Assembly: GCF_003018115.1 (NCBI RefSeq)
Contig: NZ_CP027457.1
Direction: 5' to 3' (one strand)
Source of the DNA: Escherichia coli
Lineage (GTDB): Bacteria; Pseudomonadota; Gammaproteobacteria; Enterobacterales; Enterobacteriaceae
Length of the DNA: 64,000 bases
The translations under genes and the position numbers were made by a program. This document shows positions 3,491 to 29,099 of the stretch, in pieces. Positions within the stretch are counted from its first letter, which is position 1, and every line of letters begins with the position of its first letter. A model generated the notes under the pieces. The model saw only the letters and a program-made list of their open reading frames with translations. It had not been told where the DNA came from and made no database searches.

Positions 3491-4443
3491 AGGCGTTTAC
3501 CTATGAACGAGTGAACACCCCGGCCGAGGCGGCACTTAGCGCTCAGCGCGTACCCGGCGCAAAATTTATCGCGGGCGGGACCAATCTGCTGGACCTGATG
3601 AAGCTGGAAATTGAAACGCCCACCCACCTTATCGATGTGAACGGGCTCGGGCTCGATAAGATTGAAGTGACCGACGCGGGTGGGCTGCGCATCGGCGCAC
3701 TGGTACGGAACACCGACCTGGCGGCTCACGAGCGCGTGCGTCGTGATTACGCGGTACTCTCCCGCGCCCTGCTCGCTGGCGCGTCTGGTCAGTTACGCAA
3801 TCAGGCAACCACCGCAGGTAATCTGCTCCAGCGCACGCGCTGCCCCTATTTTTACGACACCAATCAGCCCTGCAATAAGCGCCTGCCCGGGAGCGGCTGC
3901 GCGGCGCTTGAAGGCTTTAGCCGTCAGCACGCGGTGGTAGGCGTAAGCGAAGCCTGCATTGCCACCCATCCGAGCGATATGGCGGTCGCAATGCGGTTGC
4001 TGGATGCGGTGGTGGAAACCATCACGCCGGAGGGAAAGACTCGCAGTATCACACTGGCTGATTTTTATCACCCACCGGGGAAAACGCCGCACATTGAAAC
4101 CGCCCTGCTTCCCGGTGAGCTTATCGTTGCGGTGACGTTACCTCCGCCGCTCGGCGGAAAACATATTTACCGTAAGGTGCGCGATCGCGCCTCCTACGCC
4201 TTTGCCCTGGTATCGGTCGCGGCGATTATTCAGCCTGACGGCAGCGGGCGCGTCGCGCTGGGCGGAGTAGCACATAAGCCCTGGCGCATTGAGGCTGCGG
4301 ATGCTCAGCTATCCCAGGGGGCACAGGCCGTATATGACACGCTGTTCGCCAGCGCCCATCCCACCGCTGAAAACACCTTTAAACTCCTGTTGGCGAAGCG
4401 AACGCTTGCCTCCGTACTGGCTGAAGCGAGGGCACAGGCATGA
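3487..4443 (+). CDS. paoB: Aldehyde oxidoreductase FAD-binding subunit PaoB
   Basis: 318 aa; start overlaps paoA stop (ATGA); FAD-binding molybdopterin dehydrogenase-like. Confidence 0.9.
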
Positions 4444-22227: not shown

Positions 22228-22785
22228 TTATCCTTCGATAAAAGCCATCCCTGTAAATGTCCGTCTCGGGTTGCCACGTTCAATCTGGTGATGGAACATT
22301 CGCCGCTGCGATTTCAGCACCGCGCTATTTTCCTGTTGCTGCTGCTCCAGCCTCCAGGCAATCAGCAATCGTGCCAGCCGCTTGTTAGCATGCTGACTAC
22401 GCTCTGACTGAACCTTCACGCTAATACCGGATGCCAAATGCGTGGCGCGTACCGCCGAGTCGGTTTTATTGACATGTTGACCGCCCGGCCCCGACGAACG
22501 CAACGTCTCATAACGGATTGCATCCGATTGTTCCTGCTCATCAGCGGTAAAACGCCCAATGCCCAGAAACCAGTTTTTGCGCCCATGATGAGGCCGATAC
22601 GGACTCGGACAAATCCACTGAATAGTGCCACACCAGCTTTCGCTTAATGCCCATGCGTTATCGCCATCCAGAGAAACCAGCGCCGAACGCAGCGTGTCAG
22701 AGTAGCAGCCCGTTTCTGTTTCCAGCACCGTTACCGCGACGTCTTGTCGGGTAAAAACGACCAACAGAGAAGAACGCTGCGCCAA
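22228..22785 (-). CDS. prfH: Peptide chain release factor homolog PrfH (probably 5'-truncated as in K-12)
   Basis: Contains SGPGGQHVN (GGQ motif); 185-aa ORF overlapping ykfJ remnant. Confidence 0.75.
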
Positions 22786-22963
22786 TCGGGTAGCCGCGTC
22801 CGGGGTGTAAATCTGGCATCCCCACTACGCGCTGCATGTTGGGTAAATTTGCCGTGGTGTGTAATTGTTGGATCGCTAAACTCTCGATCCACAGGTCATC
22901 AGATGCGATGGTAAATACCGCATCGGATAAGGGAAGAATATATTTGCCCATGTACCATTCCAT
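22697..22963 (-). pseudogene. ykfJ: RtcB-like RNA ligase N-terminal fragment (ykfJ)
   Basis: [16 protein letters not shown] resembles the RtcB N-terminal motif; only ~70 aa of homology before reading out of frame into prfH. Confidence 0.6.
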
Positions 22964-23268
22964 TTATACTCGTCATACTTCAAGTTGCATTTACTGCGAC
23001 TGCGTTCGTTCACCCCAGTCACTTACTTATGTAAGCTCCTGGCGATTCACTCGCTTGTCGCCTTCCTGCAACTCGAATTATTTAGAGTATATAAATATAA
23101 AAATCAGGAAATGGCAGACGAATCCAGGGCAAGAAAAAAAGAATTAATCCTGGAAAGGTCTGCAAAGAGTCATTGATAAAGGATTTGTCATGATTTACCT
23201 CCTTGCAGTTTGTGGAATAAGAAAACGCGCACATACCAGGCGGGCGTTATTTTCATTGCAAGCTGGAT

Positions 23269-23721
23269 TTAATGTTGCGGTTTATATCGCATATAAAAAT
23301 TAGTAAACCACGCTCCCCGGCATTCAACGCGCTGCTGCTTAACTGTCTGAAAACCATAACGTTCAAAAAAGGGTTTTGCGGTTATGCTGGCATCTACCGT
23401 AAGTTCGGATTCAGACTTAATCAATGGTTTTAACAAGGCGCTGGCAACCCCGCGGCGGGTGTATTCAGGGTCAACAAATAACATATCGATATAACGTTCA
23501 ATGCGGGAAATAAAACCAACCGGTTGTGCATTAATGACGGCAACCCGCACTTGTGATTTCGCGAGTTTCTCCTTCCAGCGAGATTCGTCAATCTGCGCCC
23601 AGGCGGCAATTTGTTGTGGAGAATAGTGCTGACTGGAGGTCATCGTAACCGCTCTAATGAAAATAGCGCATAGTTGCTGAAAATCGCCAGGCTGATAGTT
23701 TCTTATTTGTATGTTATTCAT
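23269..23721 (-). CDS. yafP: GNAT family acetyltransferase YafP
   Basis: 150 aa [25 protein letters not shown]; ATG overlaps dinB stop. Confidence 0.9.
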
Positions 23722-24773
23722 AATCCCAGCACCAGTTGTCTTTCCATTTGCGGATCCAGCAACGTCACATGCAGCCCCACCAGTCGCACACCGCGCCCGC
23801 CGCGGCGTTCATCCCAGGTTTTACGCGCGGTGGCGATTAAGTCAGCTTTATTCAGCCGCGGCCAGACGTGCTCCTGGGTGGTTTGCTGAAAATCGTCGAA
23901 CTTTAATTTCACCCCCTGGCGAGCAATCAGTAAATCAGGTTTTACCTTTGCCAGACGGCGTTCAAGTTCCGGATACAGCCGCTCGATAATCGCTTCACAT
24001 TCAGACCAGTGATGAATATCTTCCGCCATCGTGCGTTCCACGCCGACGGATTTTCGCAACCGTTCGCTGTTAACATCGCGTTCGTCAATCCCCTGACTAC
24101 GCTCCCACAAAATGCGGCCAAATTTGCCAAAGCGTTTAAGCAGCATCACCAGATCACACTTTTGTACATCACCGCAGGTCCGCAGCCCCATCGCTTCCAG
24201 TTTTGCCGCCGAGACTTTGCCGACGCCGGGGATTTTTGCCAGTGGTAAGGTTTGTAAAAATGCCGGAACTTCTGCCGGCGTAATCACAAACTGGCCGTTG
24301 GGTTTATTCATGTCGGAGGCGATTTTGGCGAGAAACTTTACTGGTGCCACGCCCGCAGACGCCGTCAGTTGCAGCTCGTTGAAAATCGTCTGGCGGATTT
24401 CCTGGGCAATGAGGGTCGCAGAACCGTGGCAATGGACGCTGTCGGTGACATCGAGATAAGCCTCATCCAGTGACAACGGCTCAATGCGAGAGGTGTAGCG
24501 CGAGAAGATTTCACGGATATGATTTGAGGCTTCTTTGTAGGCGTCAAAGCGCCCCGGAAGCAAGGTGAGATGTGGGCATAATTTGAGCGCCATCCCTGTC
24601 GGCATAGCGCTGCGTACGCCAAATTTACGCGCGGGATAATTAGCGGTGCTGATCACCCCCCGACGTTCGCGGCTGCCGCCAATAGCAATAGGGATATCGC
24701 GCAGGGCGGGATTGTCGCGCATCTCCACTGCGGCGAAAAAGCAGTCCATATCCACATGAATGATTTTACGCAT
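23718..24773 (-). CDS. dinB: DNA polymerase IV
   Basis: 351 aa [33 protein letters not shown] (Y-family polymerase). Confidence 0.95.
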
Positions 24774-24787
24774 TACTCACCTCTCAA

Positions 24788-24805
24788 CACTGGTAAAGTA
24801 TACAG
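24788..24805 (-). promoter_or_regulatory. LexA (SOS) box upstream of dinB
   Basis: Reverse complement CTGTATACTTTACCAGTG fits CTGT-N8-ACAG. Confidence 0.75.
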
Positions 24806-24843
24806 TGATTTCAGGGTTTGAGAAATGCGTAAAGATTCAGCAT

Positions 24844-25575
24844 TTAGCGCGTTCGCTGCGAAAGCACCTGCTGCTTATCCAGCTTTTGCACCAGCGGCTG
24901 CACCACTTTATCCCCATGCTGACCAAAGTATTGATACAGCGTATCGGACGCACTTTTGGTCAGCACCATAATCTCAATACGCCGATTGCCCGCGCTTTGC
25001 GGATTTTTGGCATCCAGCAGCATCTGGTCAGCCATTGCGCTTACCTGCATCACTTTATCTTCCGGCATTCCGGCCTCTTCCAGCACCCGACGAGCCGAAA
25101 GCGCGCGGTCACCCGAAAGGTTCCAGTTGTTGTAGATATTGTTTTTGTAAGCCATCGCATCGGTATGCCCGGTAATAATAATTTTGTTATCGAGCGAGTC
25201 GAACACTGGCGCGAGCTCCACCAGCAAAGTTTTAAAGAACGGCATAATCTGCGCGCTGCCGCGTTCGAACATATTGCGATTCTGGTCGTCTTTAATCAGC
25301 ACGCGTAATCCCTGCGGGACAATCTCCATCTCCAGATTCGCTTCCATATGCGCATCACGGGCAATGGTGTTGATACTGGTTGCCAGCTCGCCAAGCTCGG
25401 TGGCGGATTTCTTCTTCAGCAGCGCCGTTTTCTCATTCACATCACGCGCTTTTTTCTCCGTCTCTTCCGGCACCGCCACGGTGGCAGGTTTTGGCGGATG
25501 AGACGGGCTGATTTTATTTAACGGCGACAGCCCACCACCGTTAAAAATCGACTGCCCGTGCAGCGCGGCGATAAT
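24844..25575 (-). pseudogene. lafU: lafU (mbhA) MotB-like flagellar motor protein, 5'-truncated; Flag-2 remnant
   Basis: C-terminal OmpA-like domain (NWNLSGDRALSARRVLEEAGM... RRIEIMV) present, N-terminal TM segment absent; upstream part of ORF is antisense of lfhA fragment. Confidence 0.75.
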
Positions 25576-25599
25576 GCTTTCACGCTCGGATTTACTGAC

Positions 25600-27313
25600 G
25601 CTGTTGACAATCAACTTTATCGTCGTCACCAAAGGGGCCGAGCGTATTTCCGAGGTTTCTGCCCGCTTTACCCTGGACGCGATGCCCGGCAAACAGATGG
25701 CGATTGACGCCGACCTTAACGCCGGGTTGATCAACCAGGCGCAGGCGCAAACCCGGCGTAAAGATGTCGCCAGCGAGGCCGATTTCTACGGCGCGATGGA
25801 CGGGGCGTCAAAGTTTGTGCGCGGGGATGCCATCGCCGGGATGATGATTCTGGCAATCAACCTGATCGGCGGCGTCTGTATCGGGATCTTCAAATACAAC
25901 CTGAGCGCCGACGCCGCCTTCCAGCAATATGTGCTGATGACCATCGGCGATGGGCTGGTGGCGCAGATCCCTTCCCTGCTGCTCTCCACCGCGGCGGCGA
26001 TTATCGTCACCCGCGTCAGCGACAACGGCGATATCGCCCATGACGTGCGCCACCAGCTGCTGGCAAGCCCGTCGGTGCTCTACACCGCTACCGGGATCAT
26101 GTTCGTGCTGGCGGTGGTACCGGGGATGCCGCACCTGCCGTTTTTGCTGTTCAGCGCCCTGCTTGGTTTTACCGGCTGGCGGATGAGCAAACGCCCGCAG
26201 GCGGCAGAGGCGGAAGAGAAAAGCCTCGAAACGCTAACCCGCACCATCACCGAAACCAGCGAGCAACAGGTCAGTTGGGAAACCATTCCGCTGATCGAGC
26301 CCATCAGCTTAAGCCTCGGCTACAAACTGGTGGCGCTGGTGGACAAAGCGCAGGGCAACCCGCTCACCCAGCGGATTCGCGGCGTGCGGCAGGTGATTTC
26401 TGACGGCAACGGCGTGCTGCTGCCGGAGATCCGCATTCGGGAAAACTTCCGCCTCAAGCCGAGCCAGTACGCCATTTTCATCAACGGCATTAAGGCCGAT
26501 GAAGCGGATATTCCGGCGGATAAACTGATGGCCCTGCCCTCCAGCGAAACCTACGGCGAGATAGACGGCGTGCTGGGGAACGACCCGGCGTACGGGTTGC
26601 CGGTGACCTGGATCCAGCCTGCGCAGAAAGCGAAGGCGCTGAATATGGGGTATCAGGTGATCGACAGCGCCAGCGTGATTGCCACCCATGTGAATAAGAT
26701 TGTACGCAGCTATATTCCTGATTTGTTTAACTATGACGACATCACACAGTTGCATAACCGTTTGTCGTCGATGGCACCGCGCCTGGCAGAAGACTTAAGC
26801 GCGGCGCTGAATTACAGCCAGTTGCTGAAAGTGTACCGGGCGTTACTGACCGAAGGCGTTTCCCTGCGCGATATCGTCACCATCGCCACCGTGCTGGTCG
26901 CCAGTAGCGCGGTGACCAAAGATCATATTCTGCTGGCAGCCGATGTGCGCCTGGCGCTGCGGCGCAGCATTACCCATTCGTTTGTTCGCAAGCAGGAGCT
27001 GACGGTGTATACGCTGAATAATGAGCTGGAAAATCTGCTGACCAACGTGGTGAATCAGGCGCAACAGGGCGGGAAAGTGATGCTCGACAGCGTGCCGGTC
27101 GCCCCGAATATGCTCAACCAGTTCCAGAACACGATGCCGCAGGTAAAAGAGCAGATGAAAGCGGCGGGGAAAGACCCGGTGCTGCTGGTGCCGCCGCAGC
27201 TTCGCCCTTTGCTGGCGCGCTATGCGAGATTGTTTGCGCCGGGACTGCATGTGCTGTCGTATAATGAAGTGCCGGACGAGCTGGAGTTGAAGATTATGGG
27301 GGCGTTGATGTAA
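25600..27313 (+). pseudogene. lfhA: lfhA (fhiA) FlhA-like flagellar export protein, 5'-truncated; Flag-2 remnant
   Basis: Homology starts mid-protein (NFIVVTKGAERISEVSARFTLDAMPGKQMAIDADLNAG); lacks N-terminal TM domain. Confidence 0.75.
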
Positions 27314-27319
27314 GAATCC

Positions 27320-27500
27320 GGCATCGGTGCACAATTGCCGGATGCGGCGTGAACGCCTTATCCGGCCTACCGTTCAGGCACAGGTTTCCAGGCATGATAA
27401 GACGCGCCAGCGTCGCATCAGGCATCCGCGCACAACTGCCGGATGCGGCACAGATTTGTAGGCCGGATAAGCGTAAGCGCATCCGGCACCAGCGCACAAT
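27320..27500. repeat. REP/BIME cluster (several REP units)
   Basis: Repeated GCCGGATGCGGCGTGAACGCCTTATCCGGCCTAC-type palindromes. Confidence 0.85.
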
Positions 27501-27997
27501 TATAAAATAATACGCTCGCCAGCATTTAAATCCGTTATGTCTCCCGCCCAATCGATGGGATATAACCCTCGCGCAACATCGCGATGGAACGTTGAGAATG
27601 GCCAATCACACACCTGCTTAACCCAGCCATGTTTCACTGGATTTATATAAATATAATCAACATGATGCCGATAATCTTTTGTATTACGGATGGCATGCTC
27701 CCAAAAACGCGGTTGCCAGATATTTTTCAATCCGCAAGCATGGGTGAACTGCTTTTTAATCTCTCTCCAGCGCGAGGAAAAATCATCATCGCCTTCAGGT
27801 AATGTCCATATGCAATGCATATGCTCTGGTAAAACGACCCAAGCGTTGATTTCAAAAGGTCTGTCTCGCTTAACTTTAATAATAGCGTTACGGAGCATCT
27901 GGAACTGAGCGGTCAGAAGGTGGCTTCGACGATTTCGTAGGTTAACCGTGAAAAACCAGGTTCCCCCCTTGATGTAATACCGACGATATTCAGACAT
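27500..27997 (-). CDS. rayT: REP-associated tyrosine transposase RayT (TnpA-REP)
   Basis: 165 aa; IS200/IS605-like HUH transposase fold, flanked on both sides by REP sequences. Confidence 0.85.
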   Translation of the reverse strand: MSEYRRYYIKGGTWFFTVNLRNRRSHLLTAQFQMLRNAIIKVKRDRPFEINAWVVLPEHMHCIWTLPEGDDDFSSRWREIKKQFTHACGLKNIWQPRFWEHAIRNTKDYRHHVDYIYINPVKHGWVKQVCDWPFSTFHRDVARGLYPIDWAGDITDLNAGERIIL

Positions 27998-28059
27998 AGC
28001 GACTCCTTTTTCTCAACGGTAAGAAGAAAAGGAAAGGTCGGCAATGAGGTGATGGAATA

Positions 28060-28170
28060 ACGGGAAAGCGGCTCGCAAAAACGCACAAATTTGTAGGCAT
28101 GATAAGACGCGTCAGCGTCGCATCAGGCATCCGTGCACAACCGCCGGATGCGGCGTAAACGCCTTATCCG
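28060..28170. repeat. REP cluster
   Basis: TGTAGGCATGATAAGACGCGTCAGCGTCGCATCAGGCATC...GCCGGATGCGGCGTAAACGCCTTATCCG. Confidence 0.85.
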
Positions 28171-28172
28171 TC

Positions 28173-28922
28173 CTACAAAATCGTCTCCTCCGTCAAAATC
28201 CGTCGCGCGCCTAAAAAATGATCCTGCCAGAAAGGTTCAGCTAACCGACTTACCCGAATGGTTTCCCCGGTGCGCGGTGACTCAATAAACTGACCGTCTC
28301 CCAGATACACCCCCATATGGTCGGCAATCTCACGACTGTGAATATGGAAAAACAGCAAATCTCCCCGGCGCAGGTCGTTGTTCGCCACAATCGTTGCCCG
28401 ATGGTAGTGATACATCTCATTGGCTGTGCGCGGGAGCTTAGCCTCAAGGATCTTGTTGTAGGCATAAAAAACCAACCCGCTACAGTCGAAGCCTTTATCG
28501 GGCCGCGTGCCGCCCCAGACGTAAGGCTTGCCAAGTTGCTGTTCCAGGCGGTGAATCGCCACTTCGGTGATGTTATGCAGATGGTCACTGCTTAGAAAGT
28601 GGTTGTTTTCCGCCAGCGCCTGCCAGCGTCTGTCACTCGCCTTGAGCGGTGCAGGAAACCATTCTGGATGCTGTTTTATCTGCTCCCGGTTGTGCTGGCG
28701 TAGCGCCCTTCTGCTTTCGGCATTGCCTTCCACAATATAGCTGGCCTGTTTTTTCAGATGGGTTTGGTACTGTTTTAATAAACGCGCACGGTTTTGCATC
28801 CGCTGGCGGGCGGCGTAGCTGAAAGAGATATGTGATGTGGTGGCGCTGGCAAATGAAGAAAACGGCAAACAAATCAACAGTAATCCCGACAATACAAAGG
28901 ATGGAATCGACGGCAAGGACAT
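28173..28922 (-). CDS. yafL: NlpC/P60 family lipoprotein peptidase YafL
   Basis: Signal/lipobox region MSLPSIPSFVLSGLLLICLPFSSFA; C-terminal NlpC/P60 Cys-His domain (DCSGLVFYAY...H); start at internal Met. Confidence 0.8.
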   Translation of the reverse strand: MSLPSIPSFVLSGLLLICLPFSSFASATTSHISFSYAARQRMQNRARLLKQYQTHLKKQASYIVEGNAESRRALRQHNREQIKQHPEWFPAPLKASDRRWQALAENNHFLSSDHLHNITEVAIHRLEQQLGKPYVWGGTRPDKGFDCSGLVFYAYNKILEAKLPRTANEMYHYHRATIVANNDLRRGDLLFFHIHSREIADHMGVYLGDGQFIESPRTGETIRVSRLAEPFWQDHFLGARRILTEETIL

Positions 28923-29099
28923 ACTCAATAATGGCTGGTCATGCTTTAATGTTGCAGTGTATCCCGGATCGTTTCTGAACAAACTTAATAAACCATTATT
29001 ATAAAATTAACATATATATTTCAGTGAATTATGTAAATACATCAGTTTATTGAATTGCTCATGAATTGCCGCTGTTGCTCAATTGAGCTACAATTCAAG

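Follow-up and report, generated by a model that had tools for sequence, protein, structure and literature searches.

In Escherichia coli K-12 and B, only two fragments of the Flag-2 (lateral flagellar) locus are left, fhiA (an lfhA pseudogene) and mbhA (a lafU pseudogene), according to a passage of PMC3032704 that cites Ren et al. (2005, J Bacteriol 187:1430). Excerpts of a survey by De Maayer et al. (2020, PMC6993521) report lfhA-lafU deletions in 531 of 4028 Enterobacterales, place the truncated lfhA/lafU pairs mostly in taxa that also have intact flag-2 loci, and ascribe the deletion to direct repeats and recombination. Flag-2 has been described in strain panels as either present or entirely absent, without intermediate isoforms (PMC5422975), and in sequence type 131 (ST131) the Flag-2 region has been described as a recombination region (PMC4637896). 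Here, we analyzed a Flag-2 remnant at positions 24844-27313 of a 64,000-nucleotide stretch of E. coli DNA (contig NZ_CP027457.1, assembly GCF_003018115.1), referred to here as the window. The remnant is almost certainly an inactive deletion scar of the K-12 fhiA/mbhA type, and nothing in the analysis contradicts this identification.

The scar itself is already known from the passages cited above (Ren et al., 2005, through PMC3032704; PMC6993521). It shares with the K-12 remnants the same two fragments, their head-to-head arrangement, the dinB-rayT/yafL site and a base-identical junction. The original prediction of a K-12-type deletion held: K-12 (L003, L112) aligns to the window across the junction without indels. 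The differences from K-12 are allelic only: 2.5 kb of the window are ~96% identical, with C instead of T 9 bp from the junction, and the window is also without yafNO beside dinB. The truncated pairs reported in PMC6993521 agree with the scars observed here in Citrobacter, Kluyvera, Atlantibacter, Dryocola, Cedecea-like strains and Ewingella; however, its excerpts do not state that the junction falls at the same base in every genus, nor do they contain the clonal-pair and single-nucleotide polymorphism (SNP) frequency results described below.

The lafU-lfhA junction and the missing interval

The intact Flag-2 loci of E. coli strains PSS-12, A14, E25, 2013C-4538 and GMM060 encode a LafU of 307 aa and an LfhA of 697 aa with 40 genes between them, and they occupy the same chromosomal site as the scar, from dinB to rayT/yafL. 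Alignment to the PSS-12 locus, the check suggested for the predicted deletion, mapped its endpoints. Its lafU end is matched by window positions 24700-25612 and its lfhA end by 25601-27400; lafU-side homology stops at 25612 and lfhA-side homology begins at 25610. By three-way alignment the deletion junction is thus a 3-bp microhomology, ATC, at 25610..25612, which on the lafU side is the antisense of the third base of Trp52 plus Ile53 and on the lfhA side the Ile131 codon. The 12-mers flanking the junction match at 9/12 positions (CTGTTGACAATC versus CTGATGATCATC), and the lafU-side (L) and lfhA-side (R) sites are identical across the five intact loci. The predicted head-to-head join of the truncated 5' ends was correct, but it lies 10-35 bp to the right of the proposed 25575-25600. 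The antisense overlap of the two open reading frames (ORFs) is also real, covering 161 bp (25574-25734), but it is merely mechanical read-through across the junction.

The interval missing from the window measures 35,358 bp against PSS-12, 35,582 bp against A14 and 38,914 bp against E25; the interior is 35,009 bp long in 2013C-4538 and 36,475 bp in GMM060. With PSS-12 as the reference it holds 40 whole genes (40 coding sequences, CDS), in line with the predicted loss of a cluster of about 40 genes. Since lafU and lfhA are the last genes of two outward-facing terminal operons, a single deletion took both 5' ends together with the 40 intervening genes and joined the ends at the 3-bp ATC. In the intact loci, insertion sequences (IS) and cargo genes are found in a variable region between a glycosyltransferase gene and lfiJ: E25 carries IS1 and two hypothetical genes there (L014 29289-32288) and GMM060 carries IS621 (L108 32331-33311), while the glycosyltransferase gene is frameshifted in 2013C-4538.

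The lafU (mbhA) remnant, at 24844..25612 on the minus strand, holds codons 53-307 and the stop. Its 5' border is the shared ATC, and it is colinear with PSS-12 (L001 9170-10082) at 97.6% identity. It codes only for the periplasmic linker and the OmpA-like peptidoglycan-binding domain. Residues 1-52 are gone, i.e., the entire cytoplasmic N-terminus and the single transmembrane (TM) helix with its conserved Asp, which confirms the predicted loss of the N-terminal membrane segment; in intact LafU this helix spans residues 35-53 (VAFADFTLAMMALFMTLWI) and carries the Asp. The ORF at 24844..25734 (minus strand) matched only the OmpA/MotB C-terminal domain (PF00691) in Pfam, with no MotB_plug, and matched the NCBIfam LafU model NF005273 over positions 42-297 of 297 with 478 bits (cut-off 383). 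The same pattern was seen among truncated LafU forms in general, which have PF00691 only, versus PF13677 plus PF00691 in intact forms. The remnant therefore has none of the TM helix, conserved Asp and plug (PF13677) of a functional MotB/LafU stator. Upstream, at 25613..25734 (minus strand), the ORF continues as a read-through 5' extension in antisense lfhA sequence, which supplies its first 41 codons, and its N-terminal peptide ...SEIRSAPLVTTIKL is the antisense of the conserved FHIPEP motif. The 261-aa "LafU" called by the Prokaryotic Genome Annotation Pipeline (PGAP) begins at a GTG at 25627-25629, within lfhA-derived DNA, and lafU as annotated in strain F9792 (L002 6065-6850) corresponds to window 24844-25629; this 261-aa CDS is a by-product of ORF calling.

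The lfhA (fhiA) remnant, at 25610..27313 on the plus strand, holds codons 131-697 and the stop as one open frame of 567 codons. It is colinear with PSS-12 (L001 45438-47147), is 95.5% identical to intact lfhA, and is preceded by a read-through 5' extension of 12 codons (MLSRSDLLTLLT) in antisense lafU at 25574..25609 (plus strand). The resulting ORF (25574..27313, plus strand) matched Pfam FHIPEP over positions 99-656 of 657 (E = 4e-189) and the FlhA model TIGR01398 over positions 118-677 of 678; its TIGR01398 score of 591.6 bits is below the cut-off of 772.1, which intact PSS-12 LfhA passes with 773.1 bits. The original prediction had the membrane domain of LfhA missing as a whole. Its N-terminal part is indeed lost (residues 1-130 of 697, comprising TM1-3 and most of TM4, or ~4 of ~8 membrane helices), but about four helices remain, and the remnant keeps everything from the end of TM4 onward, namely the FHIPEP loop, a further four hydrophobic segments (TM5-8), the linker and the complete cytoplasmic domain. 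The complete ~8-TM domain and full-length TIGR01398 match of a functional FlhA/SctV export gate are both lacking.

Of 5426 complete E. coli genomes, 4085 contained an unbroken match to a 240-bp query across the junction. Junction 58-mers, exact or nearly so, were found in 4073-4083 of these genomes and the intact lfhA (R) boundary in 1286-1289. The same contiguous junction in ~4083-4085 genomes reflects neither chance nor error. That a sequencing or assembly error hides full-length lafU and lfhA, the outcome named beforehand as fatal to the predicted deletion, is practically inconceivable: 35 kb and 40 genes are absent, the junction is identical in ~4083 complete genomes, and the near-identical strain F9792 (99.87% identity to the window region across 14.5 kb) has the same structure. 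Thirteen copies of the scar junction occur on records typed as plasmids. Rare E. coli variants in which the C-terminal part of LafU follows unrelated sequence (a Pro/Gln-rich ORF in P0013 and P0014; a frameshifted N-terminus in P0007) indicate that non-canonical Flag-2 deletions or rearrangements exist and are uncommon.

Scarred and intact alleles within E. coli and beyond

Seven scar alleles of E. coli were compared with up to five intact alleles, and the scar alleles did not group together apart from the intact ones. The lafU arm (769 nt) is the same in K-12 (scar) and A14 (intact), whose lfhA arms (1701 nt) differ by a single nucleotide, and CMZE123 (scar) is identical to E25 and GN04171 (both intact) in the arms. 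Scars differ among themselves by as many as 28 nt in the lafU arm and 108 nt in the lfhA arm. The synonymous divergence (dS) among scars is ~0.2, and the ratio of nonsynonymous to synonymous divergence (dN/dS) is 0.037 versus 0.032 among intact alleles, with both frames open in all seven scars. The window's own allele is rare, with at least 99% identity over 24780-27320 (2.5 kb) in 5 of 5443 matching records, and its lfhA remnant differs from each other sampled allele at 70-108 of 1701 nt, nearly all synonymous.

In two clone pairs, the 35-39 kb cluster is the sole difference. Between E25 (intact) and CMZE123 (scar), identity is 100% both for the 13,444 bp left of the junction and for the 12,943 bp right of it; A14 (intact) and K-12 (scar) match throughout 6,092 bp on the left and show 4 differences in 2,339 bp on the right. 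No scar-specific haplotype was seen beside the junction, either in the 58-mer counts over E. coli genomes or in the allele comparison. At the C/T SNP 9 bp from the junction (window 25621), 1956 scars have C and 2051 have T, and intact loci are divided in much the same way (618 C and 659 T).

If the scar were an empty attachment site and the 35-kb interior a mobile cassette that inserts site-specifically and restores both half-genes, it would also be expected that junctions are identical in many genera and that scarred and intact strains have identical arms. Such a cassette is very improbable given the structure of the five intact loci. Their haplotypes are continuous over both boundaries, and haplotype discordance at L and R is not above that at 355 control positions (81% and 48% of controls, respectively, are at least as discordant), so there is no excess of breakpoints at either site; an apparently sharp haplotype change between A14 and PSS-12 actually lies 168 bp before L. 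There is no integrase in the cluster, and its interior is as diverged between strains as the arms. The Flag-2 region as a whole is a recombination mosaic with blocks of 0.3%-8% divergence.

The junction is not confined to E. coli. Truncated LafU proteins in several taxa begin with ...SEIRSAPLVTT(I/M/T)KL, encoded by antisense lfhA, fused to LafU Ile53; these taxa are Citrobacter (sp. R-1.5.2, gillenii and amalonaticus), Kluyvera, Atlantibacter, Dryocola/H11S18, Ewingella and two further lineages. The truncated LfhA of Atlantibacter, Ewingella, Cedecea-like strains ("Enterobacter sp. Ap-916") and one more lineage starts at Ile131-Asn-Phe. At the DNA level, the junction was found at the same base in E. 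albertii (L017), Kluyvera (L095), Atlantibacter (L099), Ewingella (L100), Dryocola (L101), C. amalonaticus (L102) and a Cedecea-like strain (L105). In all, about ten lineages of Enterobacteriaceae and Yersiniaceae share this position, each with genus-specific flanks, and in taxa where Ile131 is encoded by ATT the shared homology is reduced to 2 bp. The Kluyvera scar equals intact Kluyvera lafU for 90/90 nt past the junction and departs from E. coli from the 6th nt on either side, and the Ewingella scar agrees with Ewingella's own L and R sites. In Ewingella and Cedecea, protein clusters at 90% identity contain intact and scarred forms together.

A third protein search, with the Ewingella query, added two more lineages and no further family. 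A search of genome contigs with the LfhA remnant was dominated by the universal FlhA motif, and its informative matches were C. werkmanii (intact) and E. albertii (scar) only. The frames are open in the Kluyvera, Atlantibacter and C. amalonaticus scars, and in Dryocola H11S18 no gene is called for the lfhA fragment. In the type strain of E. albertii, NBRC 107761 (L017 4655-4665), the junction is canonical and a ~23-bp deletion in the lfhA remnant splits the frame; its synteny with E. coli stops upstream of lafU, and dinB is not adjacent.

Origin of the junction

Deletion of a large segment at the same bases in independent cells or lineages is familiar from the skin/sigK element of Bacillus subtilis and the nifD element of Anabaena, each of which has its own recombinase and conserved att sites and whose excision restores a gene. 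Flag-2 resembles these elements in what is removed and how precisely, but no recombinase or conserved site was found in its loci, and its excision destroys two genes.

With a confidence only slightly better than even, we favor a recurrent, position-specific deletion. At about even odds, this would be a base-exact excision that always joins lafU Ile53 to lfhA Asn132 and recurs in Escherichia, Citrobacter, Kluyvera, Atlantibacter, Dryocola, Cedecea-like bacteria and Ewingella. Loss of Flag-2 would then not be one historical accident, and the exact junction would form in place, again and again. Recurrent deletion fits the clonal pairs, the flanks being native to each genus and the nearby SNP showing no linkage, and the clonal pairs in particular appear to favor formation in place over the inheritance of one old scarred chromosome segment.

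Chance illegitimate recombination cannot explain the recurrence, because many longer or equal repeats in the lafU and lfhA zones go unused. In one intact E. coli locus, the two zones share one perfect direct repeat of 11 bp, four of 10 bp, 18 of 9 bp and 77 of 8 bp, and 1600 pairs of 12-mers match at 9/12 positions or better, i.e., are as similar as the pair used. A microhomology hot spot was rejected on the same grounds.

Several observations nevertheless weigh against recurrent deletion. No recombinase is annotated in the five intact clusters, and the retained-side DNA by the junction is not conserved between genera, Cedecea-like strains having ...CCCCCATAAT in place of the ...GTTGACAAT of E. 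coli. Variation at synonymous sites extends as far as the junction, and the 3-bp microhomology is unremarkable given the unused longer repeats. Neither of the hallmarks of site-specific excision, a dedicated recombinase and conserved sites, was seen at these loci. Other candidate agents fared no better. RayT, the transposase associated with repetitive extragenic palindromic (REP) elements that is encoded beside lfhA, was rejected since the endpoints are in coding sequence rather than in REP elements and there is no rayT beside the scar in the Kluyvera, Atlantibacter, Ewingella and Cedecea-like loci. The codons account for an 8-bp inverted repeat around L (GACGCTGT...ACAGCGTC) as well as for a palindrome of 10 bp at R (GATGATCATC), neither of which is conserved in Kluyvera or Ewingella, and a gyrase-type cleavage consensus was a poor match at L and R when compared by eye.

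The absence of an evident sequence-specific site or enzyme speaks in turn for a single ancient deletion allele, identical by descent, that persists as a presence/absence polymorphism beside intact loci, which we consider possible but less likely than recurrent deletion. On this reading, homologous recombination would carry the allele from strain to strain and, step by step, into related species, while its arms would be kept fresh up to the heterology border through gene conversion by intact alleles. Common descent predicts base-exact identity of the junction and needs no new mechanism, the region is strongly mosaic (the 0.3%-8% blocks), Flag-2 is a recombination region in ST131 (PMC4637896), and conversion tracts ending at the heterology border would erase linkage even at 9 bp. 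However, an ancient allele requires polymorphism or repeated cross-genus transfer in ~ten lineages of Enterobacteriaceae and Yersiniaceae, and in Kluyvera and Ewingella native flanking sequence comes as close as 6-8 nt to the junction. The two clonal pairs are also free of any imported SNP in the 6-13 kb either side, so that a donor patch from another haplotype would have to be shorter than ~200 bp while bridging 35-39 kb of heterology.

Two other deletions offer a comparison, the eivJICAEGF deletion in ETT2, the second type III secretion system of E. coli (PMC5422975), and a second scar within the window, between prfH and rtcB; in both, as in Flag-2, a gene block is lost, the border genes are truncated and a short repeat is present. 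The prfH-rtcB scar (22228-22967, junction ~22745-22753) has lost the prfH 5' end and most of an rtcB-family gene, 1,018 bp relative to E25. It corresponds to the K-12 ykfJ/prfH arrangement, and both genes are whole in E25, 2013C-4538 and GMM060. The two alignments share 9 bp at that junction, whereas Flag-2 was joined at 3 bp (2 bp where Ile131 is ATT) though longer repeats were available.

Remnants, neighboring genes and significance

Judged by what the two fragments encode, nothing flagellar can be made from them, and the strain is without a second flagellar system. The lafU and lfhA fragments are best read as dead because they have no native promoter or start codon, have lost essential membrane segments, and decay where the scar seems older. 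Both face away from a junction that offers neither a native promoter nor a native start, the sole promoter-like match nearby being weak (9/12); the LafU fragment has no membrane helix, proton-binding Asp, plug or export signal. Decay is seen in the apparently older remnants of E. albertii (the ~23-bp deletion) and Dryocola (the uncalled lfhA).

Set against this loss of function, the remnants show strong signatures of purifying selection, and the fragments could have been kept as working truncated genes, for example a soluble LafU C-domain or an LfhA without TM1-4. The open frames in all seven E. coli scars and in Kluyvera, Atlantibacter and C. amalonaticus, the dN/dS of 0.037 among scars and the 261-aa LafU CDS called by PGAP are in keeping with retained function. 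Even so, we regard it as highly unlikely. In the clonal pairs the scar arms are those of the intact strain, so the low dN/dS dates from a time when both genes were still complete. A native promoter and start codon are lacking, the LafU fragment carries neither a TM helix nor a signal for export, and the remnants decay where they seem older, as in E. albertii and Dryocola H11S18. The purifying-selection signature is explained equally well by recent scar formation, the dN/dS being low because each scar formed recently.

The gene order around the remnant is pepD, the prfH/rtcB remnants, yafP, dinB, the Flag-2 remnant, a REP cluster, rayT, yafL, dinJ-yafQ and dpaA. The left chromosomal flank of the Flag-2 site is dinB (23718..24773, minus strand; from the ORF list and annotation comparison), and the right flank is the REP cluster at 27316-27499 followed by rayT at 27500-27997 (minus strand). 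At 23718-23724 the yafN-yafO toxin-antitoxin pair is missing, and dinB runs straight into yafP with a 4-bp overlap. The pair occupies 752 bp between these genes in K-12, PSS-12 and A14, and the form without it also occurs in E25, CMZE123, 2013C-4538 and GMM060. REP clusters, or bacterial interspersed mosaic elements (BIMEs), lie on both sides of rayT (27316-27499 and 28000-28175), and at least eight intergenic copies of the same REP sequence occur within the intact PSS-12 cluster. The sole match in an Rfam scan was the REP-derived naRNA4 at 28096-28173 (minus strand), outside the lafU/lfhA feature. In 2013C-4538 and GMM060, a hicA-hicB toxin-antitoxin pair lies downstream of lfhA (L107 46644-47271 and L108 47079-47706), in the slot that rayT has in the window, K-12, A14 and E25.

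The gene yafL (28173-28982) encodes an NlpC/P60 (C40 peptidase-like) protein. A gene of this kind adjoins the Flag-2 locus or its scar in all genera examined, although the side varies: it is beside lfhA in loci L095, L099, L101 and L102 and beside lafU in L100, L103 and L105. It may be a previously unrecognized accessory gene of the Flag-2 locus that survives the deletion.

For annotation, the region consists of two pseudogene fragments and not a LafU CDS. The scar has little significance for the window itself; what merits further attention is that it recurs to the exact base in different genera and inside clones, as a 35-kb organelle gene cluster has been lost through the same junction in ~ten lineages of two families and in clonemates that are otherwise alike. 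If the junction forms anew, this would point to an undescribed process of precise deletion whose mechanism requires no conserved site in the retained DNA and makes do with 2-3 bp of homology, and Flag-2 would be a natural system in which to test it by polymerase chain reaction (PCR). If instead one allele has been copied, a deletion of 35-39 kb can pass from one strain to another in recombination patches shorter than ~200 bp, which would bear on how presence/absence polymorphisms in bacterial pangenomes are read.

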